The notes under the pieces: generated by a model
The model's database searches: none
Told to the model about the DNA's origin: nothing
What the model saw: the letters and a program-made list of their open reading frames with translations, nothing else
Part shown: piece by piece, positions 6,664 through 56,707 of the stretch
Layout of the letters: each line of letters opens with the position of its first letter
How positions within the stretch are numbered: the first letter of the stretch is position 1
Made by a program: the position numbers and the translations under genes
IMG/VR virus record: IMGVR_UViG_3300046490_000164
Span: 70,170-134,169 of that record
DNA from: a virus
Direction: 5' to 3' (one strand)
Length of the DNA stretch: 64,000 bases

Positions 6664-6807
6664 GCTACCTCCTGGGAAATGCGAGACCGGCCCAAGGCTA
6701 AGCCAGGGGTCCGACGCTTATCCCGACAACGAGGGTGAAGTTGAGGCCGCCCTCCCGGTCAGAGACACGGGAGCCCGCATCATAGAAACCGAGAGGGGGC
6801 CGTCAAC

Positions 6808-11953: not shown

Positions 11954-11961
11954 CTTATGCC
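11954..11961 (+). promoter_or_regulatory. Conserved CTTATGCC motif, copy 1 (divergent region 11919-12065, 105 nt upstream of the first plus-strand gene)
   Basis: Exact 8-mer shared with three other intergenic sites. Followed by the hairpin-like CCGCG AAAC CGCGG and a TCTTTCT tract. Confidence 0.35.
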
Positions 11962-14756: not shown

Positions 14757-15265
14757 ACAAGATCGCCATCACTGCCTTCTCGGACGAGCTGGAGAAGATC
14801 TCCAGTATGCAGCTGAACATCGGCACACGCATCGTCTCCCGTGCCGGTGCCGCCGCCAAGGGCGCAGGCAATGTGTTGCACGAGACAGGGCAGGCCGTAC
14901 TGGACCACCTCAACCCGGTACAGAAGATGAGGGAGAGCTGGAACGCCTCGAAGTGGTGGGGGATGAAGGGCCTCACGGTAGGTGGCGCAGCCCTGGCCGC
15001 CCCAGAAGTCCTGCCGAAGGAAGACCCTCTCCACATGAACCGCGGGCGCGCCGAGAGGCTCATCGGCAACGTGGCCGGTACCGCCTCTGGCCTCATCACC
15101 ATGCAGCGGGGCTTCGTGCCGGCCCTGGCTACTGGCCTGGCTGCCCAGTATGCCGGCGGCCGCGTCGGTCGCATGATCGACAAGGCGAAGGGCCGTAAGG
15201 CCCCCGCCACACCTACTCCGCCAGCACAGGCCCCGGTGGCTGCACCACCTGCGAGGACTCCTTGA
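14753..15265 (+). CDS. Small Gly/Ala-rich protein with the N-terminal AFSDELEKIS motif (paralog family member 2)
   Basis: GTG start overlapping the upstream stop. Begins MNKIAITAFSDELEKIS and continues with Gly/Ala-rich stretches. Confidence 0.5.
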   Translation: MNKIAITAFSDELEKISSMQLNIGTRIVSRAGAAAKGAGNVLHETGQAVLDHLNPVQKMRESWNASKWWGMKGLTVGGAALAAPEVLPKEDPLHMNRGRAERLIGNVAGTASGLITMQRGFVPALATGLAAQYAGGRVGRMIDKAKGRKAPATPTPPAQAPVAAPPARTP

Positions 15266-17307
15266 GCTTCGACAACACGACCAGCGGCATGTATGGGGTG
15301 TCCAGGTTCTCTGGGCAGCGGGGGCGTACCGCAGACGGTATGGGCCGTTCGGGAGTGCGCTACCCCTCCCCCTTCTTCGACATCGGGCAGACCTACCTGC
15401 CGCCGACGCAGAAGCACTTGCTGCGGTGGTGCCGGTACTACTACCTCGTCAACCCGCTCATCAACTCGGTCATTCACAAGATGGCGGAGTACCCCATCAC
15501 CGAGATCGTCATCGACGAGCGCGACAAGCGGGTGAAGGACAGGTGGGAGTCCTTCCTCACCAGCACCATCCGCTACCGCCCCTTCCAGATCGAAGTGGGT
15601 CTCGACTACTTCACCTACGGGATGTGCGTCGTCACCATCCACTTCCCGTTCACGAAGTGGCTCATCTGCCGACGCTGCGGCCACAAGGACAAGGCCAAGA
15701 ACACGACATACCGTTGGCGCAACCTGGACTACATGATCTCCTGCCCGAAGTGTGGGGAGGATGGTCCGGCCAAGGTCCAGGACTTCTACGAGAAGGACGT
15801 CCGGCGCATCCGCCTCATGCGGTGGAATCCCGAGTACGTCAACGTCGACCCTGGCTTCGCGGGTACCGACCCCGTCTACACCTTCGAGATCCCTCTCCAG
15901 CTCCGCAACGACCTGCTGCTGGGCAAGAAGACCACGCTCGACACGGTGCCGGACGTCTTCATCGAGGCGATGCGGCGCAACAAGTTCATCCGCTTCAACG
16001 ACGAGAACGTCTTCGTCTTCAAGCGCCCCATCATCTCGATGAAGGACGAGGGATGGGGGATGCCCCTCATCATGCCGGTGCTGAAGGACACCTTCTACCT
16101 TCAGATCCTGCGCAAGGCCCAGGAAGCCATCGCTCACGAGCACATCGTGCCGCTGCGCGTCCTCTTCCCGCAGGCCGGCTCCAACACCTCCGACCCGTAC
16201 ACCACGGTCAACCTCGACTCCTGGAAGTCCAGGATCGAGGGTGAGATCGCCAAGTGGAAGTACGACAACAACTACATCCCCATCCTCCCGCTGCCGATCG
16301 GCAACGAGACCATCGGTGGTGATGGCCGGGCCCTCATGCTCCACCAGGAGATGCAGGCCTGGTCCGAGCAGATCGTGGCCGGCATGGGTGTGCCACGGGA
16401 GTTCGTCTTCGGCGGCCTCACCTACTCCGGCTCGAACGTCTCGATGCGAATGCTGGAGAACAGCTTCATCGGCTACCGCGTCGACCACGAGAACATGCTG
16501 AACCATTTCGTCATCAAGCGCGTGGCCCACTTCATGGGCTGGCCGGTCGTCTCGGCTCACATGCGTCGCTTCAAGATGGCGGACGACCTCCAGCGCACGG
16601 CCTTCTACTTCCAGCTCAATCAGGCCCAGAAGATGTCCGACCAGACCCTCCAGCAGGAGGCCGACCTGGATCCGGTTGTCGAGCGCGAGCTCATCGACAC
16701 GGAGATGTCGACTCTGCTCGACCGCCAGCGGAAGATGCAGACCGCGCAGGCCGAGGTGCAGGGCGAGGTCATGGTCATCCAGGCCAAGCACCAGGCCGAG
16801 GCAGCCAAGCACATGCCCCAGCCGGTCGACCCTGCCACGGGCCAGCCCATGGGCGCGCAGCCAGGGGCCGAGGGTGGGATGCCCGGACAGCCGGGTGCGG
16901 AAGGCCAGGCGGGGGCAGAGGGAGAGATGGTGCCTGGGCAGCAGGTCGCCCCAGGGATGCCAGAGAACTCCACCGTGTCCCTCGAGAATGCCCAGCAGGC
17001 GCCTACCGAGGGCATCCCGCAGGAGATGCAGAGCCCGCTCACCATGGGTCTCCAGGGTGGTGGGGCGAACCTCCTCTACATGGCCAAGCGTGCGGCAACG
17101 GCCATCCAGGAGGCTGAGCAGCAGGGCGGCCCGCAGATGAAGTACACCATGCTCAACACGATGCGGATGTCGAACCCGCAGCTCTACATGCTCGTGCTGC
17201 GCATGCTCCAGAGCCAGCAGGGCTCCCAGGCCAACCCGCTCGACGCCATGCAGTCTCCGCTCCCGCAGCAGAAGCCGGAGCGTAAGGCGCAACCAGTCGG
17301 AGTCTAG
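15262..17307 (+). CDS. Large virion protein, putative portal (T7-like composition), with an internal zinc ribbon
   Basis: 681 aa. The C-terminal Gln/Met/Ala/Gly-rich tail resembles the T7 gp8 portal C-terminus. Internal CRRCGH...CPKCGEDG zinc ribbon. Position is at the head of the virion block. Portal assignment is tentative. Confidence 0.4.
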   Translation: MSFDNTTSGMYGVSRFSGQRGRTADGMGRSGVRYPSPFFDIGQTYLPPTQKHLLRWCRYYYLVNPLINSVIHKMAEYPITEIVIDERDKRVKDRWESFLTSTIRYRPFQIEVGLDYFTYGMCVVTIHFPFTKWLICRRCGHKDKAKNTTYRWRNLDYMISCPKCGEDGPAKVQDFYEKDVRRIRLMRWNPEYVNVDPGFAGTDPVYTFEIPLQLRNDLLLGKKTTLDTVPDVFIEAMRRNKFIRFNDENVFVFKRPIISMKDEGWGMPLIMPVLKDTFYLQILRKAQEAIAHEHIVPLRVLFPQAGSNTSDPYTTVNLDSWKSRIEGEIAKWKYDNNYIPILPLPIGNETIGGDGRALMLHQEMQAWSEQIVAGMGVPREFVFGGLTYSGSNVSMRMLENSFIGYRVDHENMLNHFVIKRVAHFMGWPVVSAHMRRFKMADDLQRTAFYFQLNQAQKMSDQTLQQEADLDPVVERELIDTEMSTLLDRQRKMQTAQAEVQGEVMVIQAKHQAEAAKHMPQPVDPATGQPMGAQPGAEGGMPGQPGAEGQAGAEGEMVPGQQVAPGMPENSTVSLENAQQAPTEGIPQEMQSPLTMGLQGGGANLLYMAKRAATAIQEAEQQGGPQMKYTMLNTMRMSNPQLYMLVLRMLQSQQGSQANPLDAMQSPLPQQKPERKAQPVGV

Positions 17308-17321
17308 GCTGAGGGGTAAAA

Positions 17322-17345
17322 GAGGGCCCGCTCGGGCCCTCTCCT
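17322..17345. terminator. Bidirectional intrinsic terminator (10-bp perfect stem AGAGGGCCCG/CGGGCCCTCT)
   Basis: Read directly from the sequence. Lies between the convergent genes 15262-17307 (+) and 17344-17553 (-). Confidence 0.6.
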
Positions 17346-17553
17346 ACTCCGGGAACCGACACAGGATAGGCCCGAGCTCGTCCGCGATCTCTGCGTACAA
17401 GTCTCGGGCCTTCCTGAGCCGTTCGATCAAGTCGGGTGGTGCGTCCTGAATCGCCATGACCCGCATGTATTCGTTCAGGGTCTTGGCTGAGTTCTTGGCG
17501 AGGTCGTACTGCTCTTCGATGTCCTCACGCCACACCTGGTCCGTCGGGTTCAT
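17344..17553 (-). CDS. Hypothetical small protein
   Basis: 69-aa ORF; its stop abuts the hairpin. Confidence 0.4.
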   Translation of the reverse strand: MNPTDQVWREDIEEQYDLAKNSAKTLNEYMRVMAIQDAPPDLIERLRKARDLYAEIADELGPILCRFPE

Positions 17554-17972
17554 CAGGTTCTCTCGTCTTCGATCCGCTCACGGAGCCGCTGGTCCGTGCT
17601 GTACTCTTCCATCATCTCCATGACGCGCTCCTCGGCCACAGAGTGGATGACCTCTTCGATGTCGTCCGCCAACCACTCCTCGCTCAACCAGTAGAGGAGG
17701 CACTCCTTGTGGAAGTGGAGAAGTCCTGGAGCTTCCCCAGTCTCTGCGTCTGCGGTCTGGAGCATCCCAGTCTTGGGGCTCACCCGCATGACACCTGGAG
17801 CGAACTCACAGGACTCCTCTTCGGCTGCGAACGCGCTGTTGCAGTGGTCGCACCGCCGCACCATGTCTTCTTCGTCCTGCGGCTGCGGTGGGGCTGGCGG
17901 TTGGTACGGAGCGGCATACTGCTGACCGACTACTTCCGTCACTGGAAGGAACGGTCGTTGGTACCCGCTCAT
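17553..17972 (-). CDS. Hypothetical protein with a Cys cluster (CDHCNSAFAAEEESCEF)
   Basis: 139-aa ORF with a 1-nt overlap to the downstream gene. Confidence 0.45.
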   Translation of the reverse strand: MSGYQRPFLPVTEVVGQQYAAPYQPPAPPQPQDEEDMVRRCDHCNSAFAAEEESCEFAPGVMRVSPKTGMLQTADAETGEAPGLLHFHKECLLYWLSEEWLADDIEEVIHSVAEERVMEMMEEYSTDQRLRERIEDERT

Positions 17973-17978
17973 CGGGGC

Positions 17979-18428
17979 TCACCCATCCTCTGCCCCGTCC
18001 GAGGAGACGACTTTCAAGTTGGCTCTCCGCAGTATGAGGGAAAGGAACGACGACCCCTTACCGCAGCTCGTACATCCCTCGAGCGATGGACGGTCGGGAT
18101 CGAAGTCGGGATCATCTTCGGTGAGGTCGTGCGGGCGGCCGGAGTGGTAGAAACCCGGCAACACCCGCGACACATCCTTGTTCTCTCGTTCGTATCGGTA
18201 GGAAGCGTCCAGGCATTCCCAGCACTCCCACCCGACACTCCAGCCCTTTGCGGCCTCGGCCTCGACCCACTGGATCAAGAACCTGCATCGCCCGCAGTCG
18301 AAGGCGATGCCACAGAGTCCGCGCCGGCCGGAAGAGAACACTGGCCGACCTCTCTCGTCGAACGTACCGCCGTTGGAGGCGAAGAGAAGAGGGCAGAACG
18401 CAACTCGTGAGGGCTGGTCGTGGCTCAT
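17979..18428 (-). CDS. Hypothetical Cys-rich protein
   Basis: Start trimmed to ATG 18428-18426 (MSHDQPSRVAF...). Contains CGIAFDCGRC and CWEC. Confidence 0.3.
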   Translation of the reverse strand: MSHDQPSRVAFCPLLFASNGGTFDERGRPVFSSGRRGLCGIAFDCGRCRFLIQWVEAEAAKGWSVGWECWECLDASYRYERENKDVSRVLPGFYHSGRPHDLTEDDPDFDPDRPSLEGCTSCGKGSSFLSLILRRANLKVVSSDGAEDG

Positions 18429-18519
18429 GGCTAGTTGAACAGCACGGAGTACCACATCGCCGACAGCTTGGAAGCGATGTACTGCACGATGCGCGCTGCG
18501 AACGCCCACAGGAACAGTT

Positions 18520-18708
18520 TCACGGCTTGGAGTCCTCGTTGGCTGGCTGCTGCGTGTCTTCCACCGGCTCAGACGGAGACGGCTCCTGGCTCGGAACACC
18601 CATGTTGCCGAGCAAAGCCTCTTTCCGCTCCTGCTCCCACATCTCGGACTGCGACTGCTGCTGCTTCTGCACGTCCACCTCCTGAGGAATGAAGCGCATC
18701 TTCGACAT
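18520..18708 (-). CDS. Hypothetical small acidic protein
   Basis: Start trimmed to ATG 18708-18706 (MSKMRFIPQEVDVQ...). 62 aa. Confidence 0.3.
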   Translation of the reverse strand: MSKMRFIPQEVDVQKQQQSQSEMWEQERKEALLGNMGVPSQEPSPSEPVEDTQQPANEDSKP

Positions 18709-18711
18709 TCT

Positions 18712-18719
18712 CTTATGCC
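18712..18719 (+). promoter_or_regulatory. Conserved CTTATGCC motif, copy 2 (130 nt upstream of the RNAP gene)
   Basis: tctCTTATGCCtc sits in the loop of an ATTCT...AGAAT hairpin and is followed by TTTCTCTTT. Confidence 0.35.
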
Positions 18720-18848: not shown

Positions 18849-21800
18849 ATGGCTGATGCCAGCAATCTTACGCCCGACATCGCATTCGACACGTTGAAGT
18901 CGAACACGCTCGAGGCGATCAAGTCCTACTTCCCCTTCGACGGCAAGCACCGCCAGATCCATGTGGCGAACCTGCACGTTGACGACAAGCTGGACACCGA
19001 TGATGTGACCTCACAGGCGGAGGCCCGGGACAAGGAGGGCACCTGGGGCGTCCCCATCAAGGCCGACATCAAGCTGGTAGACAAGCTCACCGGCAAGACC
19101 ATAGACGAGAAGAAGGGCGCCATCATCGCCCGCCTTCCCAAGCTCACCAACCGCTACGGCTTCATCGTCGGAGGGAACGAGTACCAGGTCGACCACCTCT
19201 TCCGCCTGAAGAGCGGCATCTACGCCCGGGTCCAGGAGAACGGCGACCTGGAGAGCGAGTTCAACCTGGCCCACAGCCCGACGGGCCGCAACTTCTCCAT
19301 CAAGCTCGACGGCCAGAACAAGCGGTTCACCGTGAAGTACGGCGACGCCCACATCCCGCTCTACCCCCTGATGAAGAGCATGGGGGTCTCCGACGAACAG
19401 ATGGAGCAGCAGTGGGGCCGAGAAATCTTCTCCGCCAACCACCCCAAGACGGACGCTAAGTTCCGTGCCTCGCTCGCCTCCTTCGTGAAGCGCACGAGCG
19501 ACGCCGAGAACGTCGACACCCACAGCACCGACGAGCTGCACAAGCAGGTCCGCAACTTCTTCGACCAGACCTCCCTCCGCCCGGACACCACCAAGCTCAC
19601 ACTCGGCAAGGCCTACACCTCGGTGAACGGGGAGGTCCTGTCCCGCGCCGCCCAGAAGCTGCTGGGCGTGTCCCGCGGCACCGAGAAGCCTGACGATCGA
19701 GACAGCCTGGCCTTCAAGGAGGTCGTGTCCGTCGAGGACTTCGTCCCGGAGAAGATCCAGCGGAGCGCGAAGACCATCCGCTCCCGTCTTCGCCAGACGG
19801 TGGACAAGAAGAGCAGCGTAGGGGAGATCCTCTCCTCCGATCTCTTCAACCGCCCCATCCACGAGTTCTTCACGAAGGGTGGCTCGGTCGCAGAGCGCAG
19901 CGACCAAACCAACCCGATCCAGATGCTCTCGGCCCACCGCAAGACGACCCTCATGTCGAGGGAGTTCGGCGGCATCAAGAGCGACATGAGCATCACCCCC
20001 GACATGCGCGGGGTGAACCAGAGCCACATCGGGTTCCTCGACCCGATGCACACCCCGGAGTCCGAGAAGACCGGCATCACGCTCCACCTCTCGGCCAACG
20101 CGCGCAAGAACGGGCGCGACCTCGAGATCCCGGTCTACGACCTCGAGACCAAGAAGCCGGTGTGGGTGAAGGCCCCTGACTTCCACAACTCCATGGCCAT
20201 CCTGCCGGACCAGGTGACCTGGAAGAACGGCGTACCGACGCCCATCGCCAAGGAAGTGAAGGTGAAGGCGGTCGGTGGGGAGATCCTCGTCAAGCCGGCC
20301 GACTCCGCTCGCTACGTCATGCCGAGCGCCAAGGGGATGTGGAACTACAGCTCCAACCTCATCCCCTTCCTGCCCACCGACAACGGCAACCGGCTCATGA
20401 TGGCCGACAAGCAGATGGAGCAGGCCATCTCGCTCAAGCACCGGGAGGCCCCGCTCGTCCAGTCCAAGACGGACCACCCTACGGATCCGAGCCACACCTT
20501 CGAGAAGTTCATTGGTCACTTCGTGGCCACGAAGAGCCCGGTGTCTGGGACGATGGTGGGGTCGAAGGGCGATGCCCTCATCATCAAGGACGACGCCGGC
20601 AAGAAGCACGAGGTCCACCTCTACAACCACTTCGCGCTGAACGACCCCAAGGGGATGATGCACTCCGAGCCCCTCGTGAAGCCGGGGGACAAGGTCCGTA
20701 AGGGCCAGGTGGTGGCCGACAACAACTACACCAAGGACGGTGCGCTCGCTGTCGGCACCAACCTCCAGATCGGCTACCTGCCATACAAGGGCTACAACTT
20801 CGAGGATGGCATCGTCATCTCGGAGAGCGCGGCCCAGAAGCTCACCTCCGAGCACCTCTACAAGAAGGCGCTCGAGATCGATCCGGACCACGACCACATC
20901 TCCACAGCCAAGTTCAAGGCGTACTCCGTGGTGAAGGCGTCGCAGATGACGCCGGAGCAGTGGGGGCTCCTGGACGAGAACGGCGTGGTCAAGCCAGGGT
21001 CGAAGATCCTGCCCGGCCAGGTGCTCATCGCGGCCGTAGGCAAGAACGAGACGCGCCGCCTATCCCCTCTCGCCGGGTACGGCAAGCGAGCCTTCCAGCC
21101 CTTCAAGGACAAGTCCCTGACCTGGGACGAGGACCACGTCGGCATCGTGACCAAGGTCATCCCCATCTCGGGCGGCCGCGGCTACCGCGTCCACGTGAAG
21201 ACGGAGGAGCCGGCGGTGGTGGGCGACAAGCTCGCCGGACGCCACGGCAACAAGGGCATCATCACGCAGATCCTGCCCGACCACGAGATGCCCTTCACGA
21301 AGGACGGAGAAGAGCGCAAGCCTCTCCAGGTCCTGCTCAACCCGTCAGGCATCCCGACCCGACTCAACCCGGGCCAGATGCTCGAGACCCTTGCCGGGAA
21401 GATCGCCCAGAAGATTGGCAAGCCGTACGTCGTCAACAACTTCGGCAGCGCCGTGTCGGACTACCGCACTGGCATCGAGCACGAGCTGAAGGCGCACGGC
21501 ATCCCTGACGAGGAGATGGTCTTCGATCCCAAGGACACCCGTCGTCCTCTTGGGTCAGTGGCCGTCGGCCCCCAGTACATCCTGAAGCTGAAGCACCAGG
21601 TCGAGAAGAAGCTCACAGCTCGTGGCGGTGGGACGAGCGTGGAGGGCAAGCGCCTCTCCTCGGACATCGACCACCAACCTCCGAAGGGCTCTGGCGTCCC
21701 TGGCGGCGGGCAGGGCTTCGGCGCCCTGGAGATGTACGGCCTCCTGGGGCACAACGCTCGCCACAACATCCGGGAGATGGCGACGTACAAGTCCGATGCC

Positions 21801-24800
21801 CAGGACATCCCCTTCTGGAACATGATCCAGGAAGGGCACGAGCCGCCTCCGCCGAAGGCACCGTTCAGCTACCACAAGTTCACCGCGCTCCTGAATGGGC
21901 TTGGCGTCAACGTGACGAAGGAAGGCACCAACGTCCGCCTCATGCCGATGACGAGCAAGGAAGTCCTCCAGCTCGCAGGCAATGGGCGTAACGAGATCAC
22001 CGCCGGTGCCAAGACCATCCGCTCGAAGGACCTGAAGCCGGAGCCCGGTGGCCTCTTCGACCCCCACATCACTGGTGGCATCGACGGCAAGCAGTGGTCC
22101 TTCCTGCGGCTGGCCGAGCCTGTCCCCAACCCCATCTTCGTAGGCGCAGGCAACAAGCCCGGCCCAGTCCCAGTCCTCCTCGGCCTCAAGATGAAGGAGC
22201 TCGACGAGGTCATGCACGGGAAGCGTGAGCTCCACAGCAAGACGGGAGGGGCAGCGATCGAGGAGGCCCTGAAGAAGGTGGACGTCGACAGCTCCATCGA
22301 GGCGCTCCGCAAGGACCTCCCCACGCTCACCGGTTCCGCCCTCGACCGCTCCAACAAGAAGCTGAAGTACCTCCAGGCGCTGAAGAGCGTCGGCATGAAG
22401 CCAAGCGACGCCTATATCCTCAAGTACCTGCCGGTCCTCCCACCCACCTTCCGCCCGGCCACGACGACGCCGACTGGGGACGTGAACTACGCCCCACTGA
22501 ACGGCCTCTACAAGAACATCTCCCTCATCAACGACGAGCTGAAGAACTTCGACTACAAGACCTTCAGCGCCGAGCACGCCCACCCGCTCCGCACCCAGCT
22601 CTGGGACGCCATGAAGGCGCTCCAGTCGGTCGGAGACTACCGCCCGGTCTACGACACTGACTCGAGCGGAAACCGTGCCCTGAAGGGCATCCTCGACACC
22701 ATCGGTGGTGGTGAGGGCGAGCAGCCGAAGGAGGGCTACTTCCAGGCGAAGCTCGTGAAGCGTCGCCAGAACCTCTCCATCCGCTCCACCGTCGTCCCGG
22801 AGCCGGCTCTCGGCATCGACCAGGTCGGCATCCCCAAGGGTGCGGCCATGGAGATGTACAAGCCCTTCGTGGTGGCCCAGCTCCACAAGTGGGGCCTCGA
22901 CCCGCTCTCCGCCCAGAAGGAGATGCAGAAGAACACCCCTCTCTCCCACAAGGCACTGCAAGCCGTGGTGGACGAGCGCCCCATTCTCCTGAAGCGCGAC
23001 CCCGTGCTGCACAAGTTCGGCATCATGGCGTTCAAGCCGAAGCTCGTCGAGGGCAAGGCCATCCAGATCCACCCGCTCGTGTGCGGCGGCTTCAACGCCG
23101 ACTTCGACGGTGACACCATGGCCGGCACCATCCCGATGTCGCGTGAGGCGGTGGAGGAGGCGAAGAAGCTGCTGCCCTCCAACAACCTCTTCAGCCCCAC
23201 GACCGGTGGCGTCATGTACGTCCCTGGTCACGAGTCCCTGCTCGGTCTTCACCTCCTCTCGCAGTGGGGCAAGGACACGGGCAAGACGTTCAAGAGCGTT
23301 GGCGACCTCGAGAAGGCTGTTGAGAGGGATGGCCACGTCGGCATGAACGACGTGGTGCATGTCGGTGGGTTCAAGAAGCCCACGACGCTCGGCCGCATCA
23401 TGATCGAGGCTCGCCTACCTCGAGGCTTCGCAGGACGTGAGCAGCTCCTCCACGATCCGAAGTACGAGATCACCAAGAAGACGCTCAAGGGTGATATCGC
23501 TACCAAGGTCGCCAAGGAGCACACCAAGGACTTCTCGAAGACCATCGACGCACTCAAGGATCTGGGCAACGATCAGTCCTTCCAGTACGGCTTCTCGGTC
23601 GGCCTGAAGGACTTCAAGACGCTCCCGGAGCGCGACAAGATCGTGGCCGACGCCCAGGCCAAGGTGAAGAAGATCAAGGCCCAGAACATGGGGGAGGATC
23701 ACGAGCGCGACGACATCATCAAGGTGTGGACGGATGCCACCACCAAGATCGATGAGGCGCAGAAGAACCTGGTCGGCAAGGGCAACCGCTTGGCCCGCAT
23801 GGTCCTCGCCGGCGCTCGAGGGGAGCCAGAGCAGCTACGACAGATGCTGGCAGCCCCGATCCTCGTCGAGGACTCGTCTGGCCGCACGCTTGTCACGCCA
23901 CTCACCAGGTCCTACGCAGAGGGCTTCGACGTCGGTGACTTCTGGATCGCCCAGCATGGCGCTCGCAAGGGCATCATCCAGAAGAACCGCGGCACCGCAG
24001 AGCCTGGTGCCATCTCGAAGGACATCATCAACGCCTCCATGTCGACTCTCATCGTCGACCAGGACTGCAAGACGCAGCAGGGTGTCCTCCTCGGCCTGAA
24101 CGACAAGGACATCCACGACCGCTTCCTCGCCACGGCCTACAAGACGAAGGACGGTCACAGCATCCCCGCCGGCACCCTCATCGACCCGGGTGTCCTCTCG
24201 CGCCTCAAGAACTCCAAGCACGAGCGGGTTCTGGTTCGCAGCCCGATGAAGTGTGCCCACGGGTCCGGCATCTGTGCGAAGTGCTACGGCCTCAACGAGG
24301 CCGGAGTGCTGCACGACGTCGGCACCAACATCGGCGTGCTCGCCAGCCAGGCCATGGGTGAGCCGTCCACGCAGCTCTCCATGAAGGCCTTCCACTCCGG
24401 TGGCGTGGCACAGGGGGCCGGCGCGAAGTCCCTTGATGCCATCACCAGGTTCCGCAACCTGCTCGAGATGCCGAAGAAGCTGAAGGACGAGGCCATCCTC
24501 GCACTGGAGACTGGACGCATCACCGACATCAAGAAGGACGCAGTCGGTGGTCACGACGTCTTCATCAACGGCGTGCGTCACTGGGTACCGACCCACCTCA
24601 TCGACCCGAACGTGAAGGTCGGGAACGAGGTCCGCAAGGGACAGATGCTGTCTGGTGGCTACGTCAACCCGCACCGGATGCTCGAGGCCACCAAGGACAT
24701 CCACGCGGTGCAGAACTTCCTGACCGACGAGCTCCACGGCGGGCTGTTCGGGGACTTCGGGGTGCGCAAGAGGAACGTCGAGGTGGCTGTACGCTCCATG

Positions 24801-25136
24801 ACGAACCTCACCAAGGTCACCGACCCGGGCTCGAGCGACTGGGCCCACGGCGACATCGTTCCTCGGTCCATCGTGGAAGAGCACAACCGCTCGAGCCATG
24901 CAGGGCACAAGCCTGTGTTGCACCAGCCCATCCTCCGTGGCACTGGCGAGATCCCGCTCGTCGGAACGCAGGACTGGATGCAGCGGCTGAACTATCAGCG
25001 CCTGCACGATACCGTCCAGCAGGCTGCCTCGATGGGCCATCGCTCCGACATCCACAGCGCCAACCCCATCCCGGCGATGGCGCACGGTGCCGAGTTCGGT
25101 CGCCCGTCCCCTGGTAAGCCCAAGCACGTGTACTAG
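18849..25136 (+). CDS. Single-polypeptide multisubunit-type DNA-dependent RNA polymerase: beta-like N-terminal half fused to beta-prime-like C-terminal half
   Basis: 2095 aa. Beta motifs: EFFTKGG...NPIQMLSAHRKTTL...GFLDPMHTPESEKTGITLHL (compare CPIETPEGPNIGLI); GYNFEDGIVISE; LAGRHGNKGIITQILPDHEMPF...LNPSGIPTRLNPGQMLETLAGK; C-terminal GQGFGALEMYGLLGHNA...KSD. Beta-prime motifs: KPEPGGLFDPHITG; YLPVLPPTFRP; absolute NADFDGD at about 23094-23114; C-terminal AHGSGICAKCYG. Confidence 0.85.
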   Translation: MADASNLTPDIAFDTLKSNTLEAIKSYFPFDGKHRQIHVANLHVDDKLDTDDVTSQAEARDKEGTWGVPIKADIKLVDKLTGKTIDEKKGAIIARLPKLTNRYGFIVGGNEYQVDHLFRLKSGIYARVQENGDLESEFNLAHSPTGRNFSIKLDGQNKRFTVKYGDAHIPLYPLMKSMGVSDEQMEQQWGREIFSANHPKTDAKFRASLASFVKRTSDAENVDTHSTDELHKQVRNFFDQTSLRPDTTKLTLGKAYTSVNGEVLSRAAQKLLGVSRGTEKPDDRDSLAFKEVVSVEDFVPEKIQRSAKTIRSRLRQTVDKKSSVGEILSSDLFNRPIHEFFTKGGSVAERSDQTNPIQMLSAHRKTTLMSREFGGIKSDMSITPDMRGVNQSHIGFLDPMHTPESEKTGITLHLSANARKNGRDLEIPVYDLETKKPVWVKAPDFHNSMAILPDQVTWKNGVPTPIAKEVKVKAVGGEILVKPADSARYVMPSAKGMWNYSSNLIPFLPTDNGNRLMMADKQMEQAISLKHREAPLVQSKTDHPTDPSHTFEKFIGHFVATKSPVSGTMVGSKGDALIIKDDAGKKHEVHLYNHFALNDPKGMMHSEPLVKPGDKVRKGQVVADNNYTKDGALAVGTNLQIGYLPYKGYNFEDGIVISESAAQKLTSEHLYKKALEIDPDHDHISTAKFKAYSVVKASQMTPEQWGLLDENGVVKPGSKILPGQVLIAAVGKNETRRLSPLAGYGKRAFQPFKDKSLTWDEDHVGIVTKVIPISGGRGYRVHVKTEEPAVVGDKLAGRHGNKGIITQILPDHEMPFTKDGEERKPLQVLLNPSGIPTRLNPGQMLETLAGKIAQKIGKPYVVNNFGSAVSDYRTGIEHELKAHGIPDEEMVFDPKDTRRPLGSVAVGPQYILKLKHQVEKKLTARGGGTSVEGKRLSSDIDHQPPKGSGVPGGGQGFGALEMYGLLGHNARHNIREMATYKSDAQDIPFWNMIQEGHEPPPPKAPFSYHKFTALLNGLGVNVTKEGTNVRLMPMTSKEVLQLAGNGRNEITAGAKTIRSKDLKPEPGGLFDPHITGGIDGKQWSFLRLAEPVPNPIFVGAGNKPGPVPVLLGLKMKELDEVMHGKRELHSKTGGAAIEEALKKVDVDSSIEALRKDLPTLTGSALDRSNKKLKYLQALKSVGMKPSDAYILKYLPVLPPTFRPATTTPTGDVNYAPLNGLYKNISLINDELKNFDYKTFSAEHAHPLRTQLWDAMKALQSVGDYRPVYDTDSSGNRALKGILDTIGGGEGEQPKEGYFQAKLVKRRQNLSIRSTVVPEPALGIDQVGIPKGAAMEMYKPFVVAQLHKWGLDPLSAQKEMQKNTPLSHKALQAVVDERPILLKRDPVLHKFGIMAFKPKLVEGKAIQIHPLVCGGFNADFDGDTMAGTIPMSREAVEEAKKLLPSNNLFSPTTGGVMYVPGHESLLGLHLLSQWGKDTGKTFKSVGDLEKAVERDGHVGMNDVVHVGGFKKPTTLGRIMIEARLPRGFAGREQLLHDPKYEITKKTLKGDIATKVAKEHTKDFSKTIDALKDLGNDQSFQYGFSVGLKDFKTLPERDKIVADAQAKVKKIKAQNMGEDHERDDIIKVWTDATTKIDEAQKNLVGKGNRLARMVLAGARGEPEQLRQMLAAPILVEDSSGRTLVTPLTRSYAEGFDVGDFWIAQHGARKGIIQKNRGTAEPGAISKDIINASMSTLIVDQDCKTQQGVLLGLNDKDIHDRFLATAYKTKDGHSIPAGTLIDPGVLSRLKNSKHERVLVRSPMKCAHGSGICAKCYGLNEAGVLHDVGTNIGVLASQAMGEPSTQLSMKAFHSGGVAQGAGAKSLDAITRFRNLLEMPKKLKDEAILALETGRITDIKKDAVGGHDVFINGVRHWVPTHLIDPNVKVGNEVRKGQMLSGGYVNPHRMLEATKDIHAVQNFLTDELHGGLFGDFGVRKRNVEVAVRSMTNLTKVTDPGSSDWAHGDIVPRSIVEEHNRSSHAGHKPVLHQPILRGTGEIPLVGTQDWMQRLNYQRLHDTVQQAASMGHRSDIHSANPIPAMAHGAEFGRPSPGKPKHVY

Positions 25137-25139
25137 CCC

Positions 25140-26225
25140 ATGTCCCTCATCAAGAACGGCTTCGGCCCAGTCGTCATCCAGAGGGCTCGCGTCCTCGATG
25201 TGGACATCCGTGCCTACACCGTCTCGGTCGTCACCGAGTACACGACAAAGCCGCTCTCCGGCATCTCCTTCGCCACCCCGTACCAGCACTTCGCCAACGG
25301 GGAGGGCATCTACTTCATGCCGGAGGTCGGCTCTGTCTGTTGGCTCTGCGAGCCCTCCGACGGCAGCATGCCCTTCGTCCTGGCGTGGGCGCCGGCGCAG
25401 GATGAGGGGGATTTCAGGGCGCTGAAGGTGTCCCTCAACCCCGGAGACATCTACCTCGGCACTCGAGACGAGAACGCCATCATCCTTCGCCGCGGCGGCA
25501 TCCTCCAGATCTCGTCGACTCCGCTGTGCCAGCGCATCTTCATGCCCATCAACAACACCATCAAGGACTTCTGCGAGAACTACGGGATGTACTCGTTGGC
25601 CGGGGACATGGAGTGGGCAGTCACCATCCTCCCTGAGTCACAGGACGGGAAGCGCCCAGCCCATTTCCTCCTGAAGTCGAAGGAGTTTGCGAACGACCCC
25701 AACCCGATAGCTGAGCTTGAAATCGGTTCCCATGGAGAGGGCGCGGATACTATCCTCTCCATGATCGTTCGTGAGTCTGGTGCGGCTGGGGCGAACACAC
25801 AGATCGCTCTCTCTTTCGACAAGACAGGCAACGTGCAGTGGGATGTGGAGAAGGACGTGCAGTGGGACGTAGCAGGTGAGTTCAACCTGAACGTAGCCAA
25901 GGACATGAAGCTGCACTCCGACACGAACGCCACACTCGAAGGCATGGAGCAAGCCACAGTGTCTGGAGGGCTGGTCAACGTGGAGTCGATCTCGGGAGCC
26001 ATCAACCTTCAAGCAGCCACCGGCGTCGCTGTCACCTGCGGCAGCGGTGGCCCGGCACTGAAGGTAGGCCTCGGCACCAGCCCCACCCTCCTGGCCACCC
26101 CAGCGGTCCTTGCCTGGCTCAGCGCACACGTACACACCAGCGCAGCGCCCGGTGTCGTCACCTCTCCCCCAGTCGTACCCTTCCCTGCGGCACTCGCCCA
26201 GGCGAAGGACATCATGTCGTCCTAG
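25140..26225 (+). CDS. Virion protein, possibly a baseplate spike/hub (gpV/VgrG-like OB-fold followed by a beta-rich C-terminus)
   Basis: 361 aa. N-terminal OB-like segment GIYFMPEVGSVCWLCEPSDGSMPFVLAWAP. The C-terminal repetitive beta-strand region is rich in Gly/Ser/Thr/Val. The family call is uncertain. Confidence 0.45.
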   Translation: MSLIKNGFGPVVIQRARVLDVDIRAYTVSVVTEYTTKPLSGISFATPYQHFANGEGIYFMPEVGSVCWLCEPSDGSMPFVLAWAPAQDEGDFRALKVSLNPGDIYLGTRDENAIILRRGGILQISSTPLCQRIFMPINNTIKDFCENYGMYSLAGDMEWAVTILPESQDGKRPAHFLLKSKEFANDPNPIAELEIGSHGEGADTILSMIVRESGAAGANTQIALSFDKTGNVQWDVEKDVQWDVAGEFNLNVAKDMKLHSDTNATLEGMEQATVSGGLVNVESISGAINLQAATGVAVTCGSGGPALKVGLGTSPTLLATPAVLAWLSAHVHTSAAPGVVTSPPVVPFPAALAQAKDIMSS

Positions 26226-28396
26226 TGAGGAGCCACATGTCCCTGTACCTCGACAGCCTTCCCGAGCGCGATGACGAGTTCAAGAAGGAAGCCGCCTACG
26301 CCGCCAGGCTGGGGGAGGAAGTGGAGAACTGGCCGCAGGAGCTCTCGAGCGAGCTCTTGAAGCAGCTCCCGTTCCTCTCCGACTACGAGCTCAACGTCAA
26401 CCTCGACCGCGTCGACACGCAGCGTGGCTTCGCCTTCGGCTACGCCGACCTGGCGAACAAGACCGAGCGCCCAGAGGCAGAGCACGACGAGCATGGGATG
26501 CCGCACATCCGCGTCCCCATCGTGGTGCAGGAGAAGTCGGTCAAGCCCTTCTCGATGTACCTGGACGGCGATGCCGTGCTGCCCCTCACCGAGGAGCGCG
26601 TGCGGGAGGCCCTCTTCAACCCCGGCACCTTCGACATCTCCCAGACCCTGCCCCGGGACCCCAGCCTGGTCGAGCCGCTCATGCCCCCGACACGTACGGG
26701 TGCTGGCTATGGCGGCGAGTACAAGATGGCCTCTGCGCGCCCAGACCTGCTGCGCGCCATCGCCCCTACCATCTCCGAGAAGGACGCCTCCAGCTTCATC
26801 CAGAAGCTCTCCTCCGATGCCACTCTCCGAGTCGGCTTCAAGCGCGCCGGCGTGGTAGACGACCTCATCGAGGTCTTCGACAAGACCAAGAGGGCCAGCG
26901 CCGAAGAGCGCCTTGCCTTCGTGGCCGAGAGCATTCAGCCCACCGTCGTCACCCTCCACAAGCTGCCGGGCGGAGACTTCCTGGTGAAGTCGGCCAGCGT
27001 GAACGCTCTCAACCCCCAGGATATGCAGGGGCAGGCTGTGCCGGCCGAGGAGACCGGCATCGATCCCGCCGCGGCGCAGTCCATGGTGCCAGGGCAGACC
27101 GTCACCAGCGTCACCGAGCCCATCGAGCTCGAGGAGCCCTTCGAGTCGAAGCTGAAGCCGGTGGAGGAGTTCGGGCAGTACACCGTCGTCGACACCATGG
27201 GCAACAAGCTCACCGGCTGGGTCTTCCCTGTGACCCTGGCTTGGGACGGCGCCTTCTCGAAGCAGCCCATCGCCGTCTTCTCGAACGGCTCTGCCTACGC
27301 CATGCAGGACAGCATCGTGGGCGAGCTCATCGGCAAGAGCACGGCGCTCCCGAAGGAAGACCAGCCGGTCGGTGAGGGCGTCTTCTTCACCACCCTGGGC
27401 GCCAACGCCATCTGCACCGCCCCCATCACCGTGCGCTCCACCATGGCGGGCCCAGACGGCTTGCCGAAGATCCTGGCCTTCGATGCCTTCGGCCAGCAGC
27501 TCTCCGTCTCCTTCGTGGACGGGCTGTCCTCACCGCAGCGCGTCAGCGACATGGAGTACGCCTTCCCCAAGACTTGGAACTTCATGCGCCTGAACGGGCA
27601 GACCCAGCTCCAGGGCGGCGGCCAGGACATGAGCGGCGAAGAGGGTATGGAGGAGGGCATGGGCGGCATGTCGGACGCCCCCAAGTCCGCGAAGCCCAAG
27701 GCGAAGGGTGGGGACAAGAAGTCGGACAAGAAGCCGGCCAAGAAGGACGACAAGGGCGGCGAGAAGAAGGAGAAGTCCGAGAAGCCCACCGTCCAGGTCA
27801 ACGTCGGAGAGCAGGTCAAGAAGGAGAAGACCTCCGCGGTCCTCTTCTTCAACGGCGGCTACAACATCCAGGGTGGGTGCGGCCTCGACAAGCTGGCGGC
27901 TGAGTACCGCTACGACATGAGCCCGGTGGATGCCGAGTTCATGCTGGGCCTCCTGGGCGTGGATGGCATCACCGCCAAGCAGAAGGTGGCGGAGTGCCGG
28001 CGCAAGGGGTCAGTCAAGCTGGCAGGCCTCAAGACCATCACCCTCCTGGGAGAGCGCTACAGCGAGTCGGTGAAGACGGCCAGCGCCATCCTCGCCAAGC
28101 TCCCCAACCTGCGCCGTGACCTCACCAAGGAGGCCGCGGTCCTGGAGGACAAGGACACCGTCAACAACCTCCTCGCCCTCAACTTCATCAACCCGGAGAA
28201 CCTGAGCGAGTTCGTCAGCTACATCCCAGAGCTCGAGGAGACTAGCGAGCGCCTGGCCGAGATGCTGCTGTACAACTACCTCGGCATGAATGAGTTGCCC
28301 GAGGGTGCCATCGCTCGTTCCATGAAGGGGCTGGAAGACGTCCTCGTCGGTCTGAAGAACCTGTCTGAGACAGGGGGCGCATCCGAGGAGGAGTGA
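26225..28396 (+). CDS. Hypothetical large virion-block protein with a Lys/Glu/Asp-rich low-complexity insert
   Basis: 723 aa. Insert KSAKPKAKGGDKKSDKKPAKKDDKGGEKKEKSEKP. Confidence 0.5.
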   Translation: MRSHMSLYLDSLPERDDEFKKEAAYAARLGEEVENWPQELSSELLKQLPFLSDYELNVNLDRVDTQRGFAFGYADLANKTERPEAEHDEHGMPHIRVPIVVQEKSVKPFSMYLDGDAVLPLTEERVREALFNPGTFDISQTLPRDPSLVEPLMPPTRTGAGYGGEYKMASARPDLLRAIAPTISEKDASSFIQKLSSDATLRVGFKRAGVVDDLIEVFDKTKRASAEERLAFVAESIQPTVVTLHKLPGGDFLVKSASVNALNPQDMQGQAVPAEETGIDPAAAQSMVPGQTVTSVTEPIELEEPFESKLKPVEEFGQYTVVDTMGNKLTGWVFPVTLAWDGAFSKQPIAVFSNGSAYAMQDSIVGELIGKSTALPKEDQPVGEGVFFTTLGANAICTAPITVRSTMAGPDGLPKILAFDAFGQQLSVSFVDGLSSPQRVSDMEYAFPKTWNFMRLNGQTQLQGGGQDMSGEEGMEEGMGGMSDAPKSAKPKAKGGDKKSDKKPAKKDDKGGEKKEKSEKPTVQVNVGEQVKKEKTSAVLFFNGGYNIQGGCGLDKLAAEYRYDMSPVDAEFMLGLLGVDGITAKQKVAECRRKGSVKLAGLKTITLLGERYSESVKTASAILAKLPNLRRDLTKEAAVLEDKDTVNNLLALNFINPENLSEFVSYIPELEETSERLAEMLLYNYLGMNELPEGAIARSMKGLEDVLVGLKNLSETGGASEEE

Positions 28397-28803
28397 TGGT
28401 ATCACTCCCCCAGGAGCTGGTGGTCGGTCATCCAGTCATCGACCACCAGCACCGCGAGATCTACCGACGCACCGACGAGCTTCTCGATTCCTCGTTTCTC
28501 GAGAGGGACCTCGAGAAGCTCCCTGCCTTTGCCGACTACCTGATGGACTATGTGGATGTCCACTTCAGGGACGAAGAGATGTTCATGGGGAGGCTTGACT
28601 TCCCCGGCCTGGTCCCCCACCAACACGCCCATGCCGCCTTTCGGCTCAAGGTGGTCCGTCTGCGATCTACCCTTGATTCCGAGGGCCTAGGTGCGGCAGC
28701 CTATGCCGATGTGTGCCGGGTGGTGACGGACTGGTTCGAAGGGCACATCAACACGCTGGATCGTGAGTTCGCCAAGTTCGTGCGGGCACACCACGGGAAG
28801 TGA
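28393..28803 (+). CDS. Hemerythrin-like metal-binding protein
   Basis: 136 aa. His ligand pattern VIDHQHREIYRRTDELL...HFRDEEMFM...HQHAHAAF...HINTLDREF matches the hemerythrin/HHE cation-binding signature (H..H...E...H...H...H..D). Confidence 0.6.
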   Translation: MMVSLPQELVVGHPVIDHQHREIYRRTDELLDSSFLERDLEKLPAFADYLMDYVDVHFRDEEMFMGRLDFPGLVPHQHAHAAFRLKVVRLRSTLDSEGLGAAAYADVCRVVTDWFEGHINTLDREFAKFVRAHHGK

Positions 28804-33502: not shown

Positions 33503-33510
33503 CTTATGCC
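33503..33510 (+). promoter_or_regulatory. Conserved CTTATGCC motif, copy 3 (just upstream of the rnhB start, within the hairpin GAAACCTT...AAGGTTTT)
   Basis: aacCTTATGCCtc, followed by TTTTTCGTTCTT. Confidence 0.3.
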
Positions 33511-33838: not shown

Positions 33839-35683
33839 ATGTACTGGCAACCTATGCAAGTCGTCACTGCCGCCGAGTACCGGAAACGCTACAGGCCCAA
33901 CGTCGTCATCTCCGAGAGCGGACGACCTGAGCTCGCGGAGGAATGGGACTTCGAGCCAGAGATCCCTCCAGAGTACGCCGACGACCTGGAGGTCGCGCGC
34001 AAGCGGTCAGAGCTCGTCTCCATCTCACCGTCCCACTTCACCGAGTTCGCGGTGAAGATCCCCATCAACAAGGACGACGACGCTGAGACGCAGAAGACGC
34101 ACGACAACTTCAACTTCAAGGGGCGTGAGTACCTCCGCATGCCCTACGACACTGGGGCGAAGAGGCGGCTCTTCAAGTGCGGACGCCAGGTGGAGAAGTC
34201 GACGCTCCTCGGCAACACCTGCCTGTCCTACTGCTGCATCGTCAACGCCTTCAACGTCCTCTACGTCTCCCCCACCAACCAGCAGACCAAGACCTTCTCT
34301 CGAGATCGTCTGAAGGAGCCGCTCGAGACGAGTGACCTCTTGAAGAGCTGGACGACCACCAAGCTCTCCGACAACGTCTTCGAGAAGCAGTTCATCAACC
34401 GCTCCAAGATCACGCTGCGGTACGCCTACCACAACGCCGACCGTACCCGCGGTATCCCCGCGGACATGATCCTGATCGACGAGGTTCAGGACATCATCAC
34501 CGACAACATCCCCATCATCGAGGAGTGCGCCTCGCACTCCCACTTCAAGCTCTTCGTCTACTCGGGCACGCCCAAGTCTCTCGACAACGCCATCGAGAAG
34601 TACTGGAACGACTACTCGACGCAGAACGAGTGGGTGGTCCCTTGTGAGCGCCACGGGACACCGAACGACCCCAGCTCCTGGCACTGGAACATCCTCTCCG
34701 AAGACACCATGGAGGAGAAGGGCCTCGTCTGCGACAAGTGCCACGAGCTCATCAACCCGATGCACCCGATGGCCCAGTGGGCCTCGATGAATCCGAAGGT
34801 CCGACAGGACCCTCCAGAAGGTCTCGGTACGGATGGCGCCTATGAGGGGTTCCGCATCCCACAGCTCATGGTGCCGTGGCTGAACTGGTCGCAGATCTGG
34901 GTGAAGAAGCTCACCTATCCTCGAGGTCAGTTCTACAACGAGGTGCTCGGTCTTTCGTACGACTCCGGCCTTCGCCCCCTCACGCAGCAGGATGTGAAGA
35001 ACAACTGCAAGTCTGGACTCCTCATGTCGGAGTCCATGCTGGCCGACATCAAGCACAGGCTCGGACAGTCCTCTCCCATCTTCGCCGGCATCGACTGGGG
35101 CACCGGAGAGGGCAGCTACACCGTCCTCACCCTGGGCGCCTACATCGATGGCTTCTTCACCATCTTCTACATCCACCGCTTCGAGGGCCAGGAGCTCGAG
35201 CCACCAGTCCAGCTCGGCATCATCGAGGACCTCCTGCGTGCCTGGAACGTGGACATGGTCGGCTGCGACTACGGTGGCGGCTACCACCAGAATGACAACC
35301 TCCAGCGCAAGTTCGGGACCAACAAGATCGTGAAGTACCAGTACTCGAACCCTGGCCAGAAGGTGAAGTACGAGCCCGACCTTCGACGTTTCCTCGTGAA
35401 CCGCACCGAGGTGATGAGCGACTTCTTCAACGCCATCAAGCGCGCCAACTTCTTCCGCTTCCCTGACTGGGCCCACTTCGAGGATCCGTACGCTTCAGAC
35501 TTCCTCTCCATCTTCAGCGAGTACAACGAGCAGCGCAGGCAGATCGAGTACAAGCACGCACCGGACAAGACGGACGACTCGTTCCACTCCTCGCTCTACT
35601 GCTTCCTCGCATCCATGCTGAAGATCCCAGCCTTCCACATCCTGAACCCCACCTCCAAGGTCTCCATCCAGACTGAGGACTAA
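33839..35683 (+). CDS. terL: Terminase large subunit (ATPase plus nuclease)
   Basis: 614 aa. Walker A CGRQVEKST, Walker B ADMILIDEVQD. C-terminal RNase-H-like nuclease region GIDWGTGEGSYTVLTLGAY...DYGGGY. Confidence 0.85.
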   Translation: MYWQPMQVVTAAEYRKRYRPNVVISESGRPELAEEWDFEPEIPPEYADDLEVARKRSELVSISPSHFTEFAVKIPINKDDDAETQKTHDNFNFKGREYLRMPYDTGAKRRLFKCGRQVEKSTLLGNTCLSYCCIVNAFNVLYVSPTNQQTKTFSRDRLKEPLETSDLLKSWTTTKLSDNVFEKQFINRSKITLRYAYHNADRTRGIPADMILIDEVQDIITDNIPIIEECASHSHFKLFVYSGTPKSLDNAIEKYWNDYSTQNEWVVPCERHGTPNDPSSWHWNILSEDTMEEKGLVCDKCHELINPMHPMAQWASMNPKVRQDPPEGLGTDGAYEGFRIPQLMVPWLNWSQIWVKKLTYPRGQFYNEVLGLSYDSGLRPLTQQDVKNNCKSGLLMSESMLADIKHRLGQSSPIFAGIDWGTGEGSYTVLTLGAYIDGFFTIFYIHRFEGQELEPPVQLGIIEDLLRAWNVDMVGCDYGGGYHQNDNLQRKFGTNKIVKYQYSNPGQKVKYEPDLRRFLVNRTEVMSDFFNAIKRANFFRFPDWAHFEDPYASDFLSIFSEYNEQRRQIEYKHAPDKTDDSFHSSLYCFLASMLKIPAFHILNPTSKVSIQTED

Positions 35684-36186: not shown

Positions 36187-36264
36187 GGGGTATCTCCTTC
36201 TTCAGTCCGGAGTGAACTGAGGGCCAGTTCTGTCTGGCTATACCCTTATCCCGATGCCTTCGAC

Positions 36265-56488: not shown

Positions 56489-56707
56489 TCATTTCTGGGG
56501 CTCTTCGACTCGGCGGACCTTGGCAGCCTGGAGCTTGTTGCCCTTGCCGATCTCAGTCTCGAACTCGACTCGCTCCCCCTCCACCAGCTCTCTGAAGCCA
56601 TCCATCCTGATGGCCGAGTAGTGGACGAAGATGTCCTTGCCCCCACCGTCTGGGAGCAGGAAGCCGAATCCCTTTACACTGGAGAACCACTTGACTGTGC
56701 CTTGCAT
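56489..56707 (-). CDS. cspA: Cold-shock protein (CspA family)
   Basis: 72 aa. [33 protein letters not shown] with the RNP1/RNP2 motifs KGFGFI and VFVHY. Confidence 0.85.

Follow-up and report, generated by a model that had tools for sequence, protein, structure and literature searches.

A single-chain fusion of bacterial-type RNA polymerase beta and beta-prime subunits encoded among the structural genes of an uncultured phage

We analysed a 64,000-nucleotide stretch of viral DNA (positions 70,170 to 134,169 of IMG/VR virus record IMGVR_UViG_3300046490_000164; hereafter the window), which contains a gene for an RNA polymerase (RNAP) whose beta and beta-prime subunits are joined in one polypeptide. 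A sequence-only reading of the window had proposed such a one-chain fusion, of clearly bacterial type, inside the virion gene block, and the results below substantiate it. The gene is a single open reading frame (ORF) on the plus strand that runs from an ATG through 2095 codons to its stop without an internal stop, and neither a stop nor a frameshift separates the beta and beta-prime parts, an outcome that had been named as grounds for abandoning the fusion. Its GC content at the first, second and third codon positions (0.61, 0.40 and 0.90) follows the same pattern as that of the real genes of this 63% GC window. Pfam placed Rpb2 domains 3, 6 and 7 at residues 351-986 (Rpb2_6 at 1e-56), followed by Rpb1 domains 1-5 at residues 1174-1890, and the best matches by sequence among solved structures were bacterial beta-prime chains in the PDB (E = 1e-116). 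Identity to bacterial enzymes was only ~26-28%.

The motifs that had been read from the sequence are all present and in the order given. In the beta half these are GFLDPMHTPESEKTGITL (residues 395-412), GYNFEDGIVISE (648-659), GRHGNKG (797-803) and LNPSGIPTRLNPGQMLE (830-846), with GALEMYGL (958-965) and LNGLGVNVTKEG (1015-1026) at its end, and in the beta-prime half they are LPVLPPTFRP (1194-1203), NADFDGD (1416-1422) and GICAKCYG (1807-1814). The last of these had been called terminal, which proved incorrect, as ~280 residues comprising the trigger loop, the jaw and the C-terminal region come after it. Alignment also recovered the marks of the beta double-psi barrel, namely the active-site lysines within GRHGNKG and a GYNFED motif. 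The catalytic motifs, together with the second zinc site, are conserved at 90% or more in family alignments of 94-98 homologues.

To compare the protein with cellular subunits, a family profile of 98 homologues was aligned to Salmonella RpoB and RpoC, the lengths of which are the same as in E. coli. The resulting hidden Markov model (HMM) covers residues 84-232, 429-931, 1048-1126 and 1207-1339 of the 1342 residues of RpoB, and residues 168-949 and 1151-1347 of RpoC; the gaps we take to be the E. coli lineage insertions bi4, bi9, bi11 and SI3, along with a somewhat trimmed lobe. Both the HMM alignment and structural models show that bridge helix, trigger loop, clamp helices, lid, lobe/protrusion and flap have all been kept. 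An AlphaFold model of residues 1-520 (predicted local distance difference test [pLDDT] 89, predicted template-modelling score 0.82) superposed on the N-terminal half of bacterial beta with template-modelling scores of 0.72-0.78, and therefore the protrusion, lobe and fork are retained. At 654 amino acids (aa) below RpoB plus RpoC of Salmonella/E. coli length (1342 + 1407 aa), the protein shows the ~650-aa shortfall that had been estimated from the sequence. This shortness appears to be owed mainly to the missing E. coli lineage insertions and to the missing N-terminal zinc ribbon of beta-prime. The earlier description of the enzyme as compact or minimal thus overstates its reduction, since no core module is lost and the shortfall corresponds for the most part to lineage-specific insertions; the enzyme is minimal only in a relative sense, being a complete bacterial-type core without those insertions and the ribbon.

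At the join, the end of the beta part (…FSYHKFTALLNGLGVNVTKEG) aligns to the final residues of RpoB. In the ~95 residues past it, a manual alignment showed that the beta-prime region A motifs KPEPGGLFDP and WSFLRLAEPVPNPIF are kept, while the Cys4 zinc ribbon between them is gone. The protein has five cysteines in total, and only four are conserved in the 98 homologues; these four align with the cysteines of the DC and SC...C..C motifs that form the second zinc site of Salmonella/E. coli RpoC. No cysteine lies in residues 1027-1411, and none is conserved there among the 98 homologues, so that the cysteine positions confirm the loss of the four-cysteine N-terminal ribbon noted from the sequence. 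The join itself is as conserved as the rest of the protein (mean column identity 0.68-0.69). In an AlphaFold model of residues 880-1330 (pLDDT 80 overall, 81-97 over the join), which superposes on bacterial beta-prime clamps, the join forms an ordered hairpin in which strands from either side pair with each other. Both halves of the active site and all mobile elements of the core are intact, and the join is conserved and ordered.

These features bear on whether the chain might be a polyprotein that the prohead protease, for instance, cleaves at the join or close to it, giving a two-subunit enzyme with distinct beta-like and beta-prime-like chains. A prohead-protease-like protein is indeed encoded in the window, and two-gene enzymes occur in some relatives, though with the break inside beta-prime and not at the join. 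We nonetheless consider cleavage very unlikely, since the join is as conserved as the catalytic regions, is modelled as a continuous strand pair with pLDDT >80 and contains no variable, loop-like linker. Moreover, the C-terminus of beta adjoins the N-terminus of beta-prime in bacterial RNAP, and both natural (Helicobacter) and engineered fusions are active.

The rifampicin pocket (19899-20084, residues 351-412) differs from that of E. coli at Q513, which is replaced by E, and at S531, replaced by T or L; H526 or R529 is also changed, depending on a one-residue choice of register. This altered pattern is conserved across the family, and since the pocket has diverged, the enzyme is predicted to be rifampicin-insensitive, which we regard as likely.

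The one-chain layout is not peculiar to the window. The protein database contains more than 100 homologues of 2079-2130 aa, with 46-69% identity and on contigs of up to 220 kb. When a 1200-residue query crossing the join was searched against one representative per 50% identity cluster, the best 150 cluster representatives, down to 38% identity, were single chains across the join without exception (150/150). Likewise, ~70 of the 80 viral contigs among the IMG/VR matches listed cover the join segment end to end in one frame, mostly in ORFs of 2000-2150 aa and at GC contents of 0.36-0.69. Since both sets show one chain, the fusion is a stable, ancient and widespread architecture. Judging from hundreds of metagenomic relatives, it is common to a very large clade of phages with contigs of roughly 100-220 kb.

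We also considered a cellular rpoBC gene of the full-length Helicobacter/Wolbachia type, which the sequence-only reading had itself raised as the alternative, or else a recent capture from a host or an assembly or frameshift artefact that joined two genes. The solved structures that match best are bacterial beta and beta-prime, as noted above; however, the NCBIfam models for cellular fusions scored 555 bits against a cut-off of 5372 (NF007172) and 466 against 4632 (NF011417), and those for the single subunits scored 524 against 963.5 (rpoC, TIGR02386) and 304 against 801 (rpoB, TIGR02013). The low identity to bacterial enzymes, the terminase, portal, capsid, sheath and phage replication genes of the window, and the identical one-chain layout in hundreds of independent assemblies argue in the same direction, and this explanation was rejected as having a negligible probability. 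Cellular RpoBC proteins do share the head-to-tail join at the same termini, but they are chromosomal housekeeping enzymes of ~2840-2890 aa that work with alpha, omega and sigma. Since the phage protein reaches only about a tenth of the RpoBC cut-offs and is encoded in a phage, its fusion is most likely independent of the cellular ones. When 24 kb of the window was compared by megablast with 50,697 phage records, none matched, indicating that there is no close cultured relative, and the cultured phages closest to the RNAP share only ~31% identity with it.

We found no description of a phage beta/beta-prime fusion in the searchable literature; the enzymes described in reviews of jumbo-phage RNAPs, and in a jumbo-phage review of 2026, are all split, and no such fusion is mentioned there. 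To that extent the earlier claim that the architecture is undescribed holds, but GenBank already contains a partial fusion, of beta with the N-terminal half of beta-prime, that has gone without remark in the isolates Arash (gp206) and Vibrio phages D69, D148 and D181. Among annotated proteins, the RNAPs of these phages come closest (30-33% identity, 97% query coverage). A single continuous match links Arash Gp206 (1525 aa) to query residues 4-1453, with the passage from beta to beta-prime inside one ORF as in the window. In both groups the RNAP gene comes shortly after the portal gene, and the portal, terminase, protease, capsid, sheath and tube genes are homologous and collinear. They differ in that beta-prime is broken ~30 residues past NADFDGD in Arash and the Vibrio phages, where a separate gene encodes its C-terminal half; this gene is found 5-7 kb away in Arash, and past small ORFs and a homing endonuclease (D148, D181) in the Vibrio phages. 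The GenBank records give only 'RNA polymerase subunit beta' or 'hypothetical protein', and the accessible text of the Arash report calls Gp206 and Gp216 simply the beta and beta-prime subunits (PMC10585845). Arash also has a sigma factor, whereas none was seen in the 64-kb window.

Insertions within the fused family may explain such breaks. In approximately 25 members, the insertion of intein or LAGLIDADG sequences enlarges the protein to 2430-3387 aa. Such insertions fall at four hot spots, namely after residue ~405 (the PMHTPES fork motif), at ~857, at ~1428-1431 (after NADFDGDTM) and at ~1850 (trigger loop GEPSTQ). Of 27 intein-type insertions, 16 lie directly after NADFDGD, and one protein carries three. 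Since inteins cluster after NADFDGD, these results suggest that the secondary splits of beta-prime were caused by mobile elements.

Other phage RNAPs are related in more limited ways. The mReC phages, as described by Weinheimer and Aylward (2020; PMC7481178), are uncultured tailed phages with alignable bacterial-like beta and beta-prime subunits and an NADxDGD motif, with RNAP genes among those for capsid, portal and terminase, and some of their contigs exceed 200 kb. By gene comparison, the window has the same content (a tailed phage, alignable beta and beta-prime, NADxDGD). The available rows of the mReC table differ in listing beta and beta-prime as two separate proteins of ~900-1560 aa each, and the paper mentions fusion only for crAss-like phages (PMC7481178). 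The RNAPs of phiKZ and AR9 are also phage-encoded two-barrel enzymes without alpha, omega or canonical sigma, and one RNAP set of these phages is packaged and injected for early transcription, but they are split into 4-5 or more polypeptides and highly diverged; their PHROG subunit families match the fused RNAP at only 1e-25 to 1e-4, compared with 1e-116 for bacterial beta-prime. In crAss-like gp66, SPbeta YonO and P23-45 gp96/gp64 both double-psi barrels do lie in one polypeptide, and gp66 and gp96 are virion proteins. These enzymes, however, form a distant QDE-1/YonO-like clade without alignable beta/beta-prime modules, whereas the fused RNAP is built as a complete core of bacterial type, in which lobe, flap, clamp, bridge helix and trigger loop are all present.

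The features of the locus are collected in Table 1. Four rightward genes ending in the portal gene are followed by small leftward genes, the RNAP gene, genes for a 361-aa and a 723-aa protein, a leftward RNase HII gene and the terminase gene, and this order is kept in three relatives designated L008 (67% identity), L007 (54%) and L005 (46%), in which both the portal gene and the small minus-strand genes occupy equivalent positions. The window portal shares 30% identity with the Arash portal gp204 (E = 1e-70) and matches its D69 homologue at 1e-75 (tblastn). The 361-aa protein matched the OB domain family Phage_base_V at its N-terminus with E = 0.011, and its three orthologues did so at 0.011, 2.6e-4 and 1.9e-5, the last being the one orthologue above the gathering cut-off (25.4 bits against 23.8). 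Since all four proteins match this family, the label 'gpV/VgrG-like' given to it earlier is reasonable. No meaningful family match was found for the 723-aa protein in PHROGs or Pfam. The RNAP gene therefore lies in a phage structural-gene region, with its portal, hub-like and terminase order kept in relatives. The more specific claim that it stands between a portal-like and a gpV/VgrG-like gene is correct as to order but not as to direct adjacency to the portal gene, from which the small minus-strand block separates it. On the opposite strand the window encodes DNA polymerase A, a primase, a DnaB-like helicase, a UDG-family protein and RNase HII. As had been stated for alpha and omega, no member of the alpha, omega or sigma families was found by Pfam among the genes of the window, including its small proteins in concatenated form, which represents 64 kb of a 134-kb contig.

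Table 1. Positions in the window of the fused RNAP gene, its modules, neighbouring genes and GGSATAAG boxes.
Feature	Coordinates	Strand	Basis or remark
GGSATAAG box (GGGATAAG) upstream of DnaB-like helicase gene	6717..6724	-	
GGSATAAG box (GGCATAAG) heading leftward replication-gene block	11954..11961	-	
Portal protein gene (681 aa)	15262..17307	+	PHROG portal 2.6e-5, 7.9e-4 (weak); tblastn to Arash, D69
Small leftward genes between portal and RNAP (69 aa, 139 aa, possible Cys-rich ORF, 63-aa acidic ORF)	17344..18709	-	Codon-position GC
GGSATAAG box (GGCATAAG; CTTATGCC on + strand)	18712..18719	-	3 nt before ATG of small leftward ORF
Fused beta/beta-prime RNAP gene	18849..25136	+	Single ORF, 2095 aa, 230 kDa, isoelectric point 9.2
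Beta-like module (residues 1-1026): protrusion, lobe, fork, flap, double-psi barrel with GRHGNKG, C-terminal clamp part	18849..21926	+	Family HMM, model
Beta active-site GRHGNKG (residues 797-803)	21237..21257	+	Aligned to E. coli GRHGNKG
Beta/beta-prime junction (residues 1001-1100): beta end straight into beta-prime region A, without zinc ribbon	21849..22148	+	hmmalign, conservation, model
Beta-prime-like module (residues 1027-2095): lid, clamp helices, NADFDGD, bridge helix, second zinc site, trigger loop without SI3, jaw	21927..25133	+	Family HMM, alignments
Catalytic NADFDGD (residues 1416-1422)	23094..23114	+	Aligned to RpoC 458-464
Second zinc site (C1740, C1802, C1809, C1812)	24066..24284	+	Only Cys conserved in 98 homologues
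gpV/VgrG-like baseplate hub candidate (361 aa), directly 3' of RNAP	25140..26225	+	Pfam Phage_base_V, N-terminus
Conserved 723-aa protein, same operon	26225..28396	+	Orthologues after RNAP and hub genes in L005, L007, L008
GGSATAAG box (GGCATAAG)	33503..33510	-	14 nt before RNase HII gene ATG
Large terminase	33839..35683	+	PHROG 675 at 2e-59; homologous to Arash gp1
GGSATAAG box (GGGATAAG) between two leftward genes	36245..36252	-	
Prohead-protease-like gene	39030-40736		Profile search of window genes
Major head protein	44584..45714	+	PHROG 2522 at 3.7e-10; 29% identity to Arash gp226 major capsid protein
Tail sheath	51175..54489	+	PHROG 279 and 2839; C-terminus homologous to Arash gp236
GGSATAAG box (GGGATAAG) upstream of vault-protein-like gene	60606..60613	-	
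GGSATAAG box (GGCATAAG) heading leftward block that begins with AAA_5 ATPase gene	63768..63775	-	

Several further genes were observed. A Cys-rich ORF of ~150 aa (17979-18429, minus strand), which failed the codon-position filter, may fill the apparent gap of ~550 nt between the small leftward genes upstream of the RNAP gene. The rightward operon of the RNAP, hub-like and 723-aa genes also includes a hemerythrin-domain protein (1.1e-10; 28393-28803, plus strand), and an HNH endonuclease gene (Pfam HNH_3, 5.6e-11; 54533-55183, plus strand) sits as an insertion between the genes for tail sheath and tail tube. Leftward genes encode an HU-like DNA-binding protein (426-683), a UDG-superfamily protein (8453-9307), RNase HII (32871-33488), the place of which beside the terminase gene is conserved in relatives, and a cold-shock-domain protein (56489-56707). 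A vault-like ORF of 908 aa (57843-60569, minus strand) matched the Pfam major vault protein shoulder at 8e-23, Vault_3 at 1e-10 and the Vault repeat, and shares a leftward block with a 626-aa unknown protein (60813-62693) and an AAA_5 (MoxR-like) ATPase (62812-63726). A homologue of the vault protein is unusual in a phage genome.

The sequence-only reading had also pointed to a conserved motif 130 nt upstream of the RNAP gene, and CTTATGCC was found there, enriched in the window (four copies against 0.5 expected) and kept in relatives. In the widened form CTTATSCC it occurs seven times against 0.95 expected, a count that none of 100 shuffles reached. All seven copies lie on the plus strand, so that the minus strand reads GGSATAAG, at 3-60 nt before minus-strand start codons, and the box heads four of the five leftward gene blocks. 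The same place before the RNAP gene is occupied in L005 (9849), L007 (9870) and L008 (9852), and boxes in matching places and orientation number three in L005, three in L007 and four, against 0.49 expected, in L008. L007 has a GC content of just 51%, and the box is thus kept across phages with GC of 0.51-0.63; in 57 more distant IMG/VR loci its strand bias was 44 to 16. The box is not sigma-70-like, having a G at the last hexamer position and no -35 element, and no sigma-70-type promoter turned up in a scan of the region upstream of the RNAP gene. We also dropped the idea that the sequence 3' of the box is sigma-54-like, as its spacing did not fit.

For the window and the phages closest to it, we rejected CTTATGCC as the promoter of the RNAP gene itself. 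A pair of minus-strand genes flanks three of the seven copies in the window, and the same holds for three copies in L005 and L008; a rightward promoter at the window copies so placed could yield nothing but antisense RNA. No copy in the window, L005 or L008 is flanked by two plus-strand genes. The orientation of the box, its spacing to minus-strand start codons and its recurrence in relatives indicate that GGSATAAG is most likely a clade-specific promoter element of the leftward, non-structural genes. Since it is conserved over differing GC and is not sigma-70-like, it would fit recognition by phage-encoded machinery. The 63-aa acidic ORF (18520-18709, minus strand), divergent from the RNAP gene, has its ATG 3 nt past the GGCATAAG box, and a leaderless or near-leaderless mRNA is suggested for it; similar small acidic ORFs occur in the equivalent place in L007 (~9687-9822, minus strand) and L070 (~6288, leftward). 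Among distant IMG/VR loci, L032-L034, L039 and L043 have aAGGCTTATACCAA (CTTATATC in L032 and L033) at -10 to -17 from the RNAP ATG, and other distant relatives have gCTAGAAT-like or TATACT-like boxes 15-25 nt upstream of the RNAP start. These near-ATG boxes may be promoters of the RNAP operon.

We propose, with moderate confidence, that this gene supplies the phage with the catalytic core of its own two-barrel RNAP, an enzyme of bacterial type with beta and beta-prime in one polypeptide, and that this enzyme acts as follows. The covalent link would stand in for the assembly role of the alpha dimer and allow folding and activity without alpha and omega, as in the split phiKZ and AR9 enzymes; that the enzyme works without these subunits is something we infer. 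It would be made late, alongside the virion proteins, then packaged and delivered with the DNA, whereupon it would start host-independent transcription of the leftward non-structural genes that carry the GGSATAAG box. The promoter would be recognised by the RNAP itself or by a phage-encoded factor outside the window. Packaging is plausible, since the Arash homologue is present in particles and the position among virion genes is conserved. In the particle preparations of the Arash report, no protein yielded more spectra than Gp206 (3516), and Gp216 (1210 spectra) and the sigma factor Gp10 were also present (PMC10585845). Arash carries only one RNAP set.

Several points weigh against this proposal. 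The packaging evidence comes from a relative of only ~30% identity, and the 116 'virion' proteins of the Arash proteome include ribonucleotide reductase (PMC10585845); such metabolic enzymes in the particles make carry-over from the lysate possible. Arash encodes a sigma factor that was also found in its particles (PMC10585845). As the window is 64 kb of a 134-kb contig, the remainder could encode small subunits, a sigma factor or a second RNAP. The flap-tip segment is shortened and variable and gives no firm pointer on sigma use. Finally, a CTTATACC box is fixed 10-17 nt before the RNAP ATG in some distant relatives, in which the box may have a rightward or two-way role.

Given these points, the fused enzyme could instead be a non-virion polymerase that performs only middle or late transcription after host RNAP has transcribed the early genes, its location reflecting the timing of expression. 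This would agree with the case for packaging in the family being drawn by analogy from Arash, whose particle proteome seems to be contaminated by metabolic enzymes, and with the absence of a GGSATAAG box in its own orientation from the rightward block of the RNAP gene. We hold it to be unlikely, though a serious contender, since the portal-then-RNAP order persists from 67% to ~30% identity, the Gp206 spectral count was the highest of all Arash proteins, and a leftward box that is kept at GC of 0.51-0.63 and is not sigma-70-like argues against host-specific recognition. Within our proposal of a packaged two-barrel core, the boldest form is that the 230-kDa chain is self-sufficient and virion-delivered, needs no alpha-, omega- or sigma-like partner and itself recognises GGSATAAG for host-independent early transcription. 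This form we consider doubtful, but if true, it would make this chain the first enzyme in the cellular (multisubunit) RNAP lineage to occur in nature as the product of one gene.

To our knowledge, cellular-type RNAPs are always multi-protein machines, the two large subunits of which need the alpha dimer for assembly. A natural and widespread single-gene enzyme with every core element would put directly to the test how far the assembly and accessory apparatus can be dispensed with, and would give structural and single-molecule studies of the two-barrel mechanism a simple subject. It may also serve as a one-gene, probably rifampicin-insensitive, orthogonal transcription tool of a class other than T7 RNAP. 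In evolutionary terms the trend is opposite to that of the phiKZ-like phages, with fusion in place of fragmentation, and the inteins and homing endonucleases of the family mark where secondary splits arise. The phages that carry the fused RNAP form a large uncultured clade, with contigs of up to ~220 kb and GC contents of 36-69%, that probably has its own transcription machinery in the particle.

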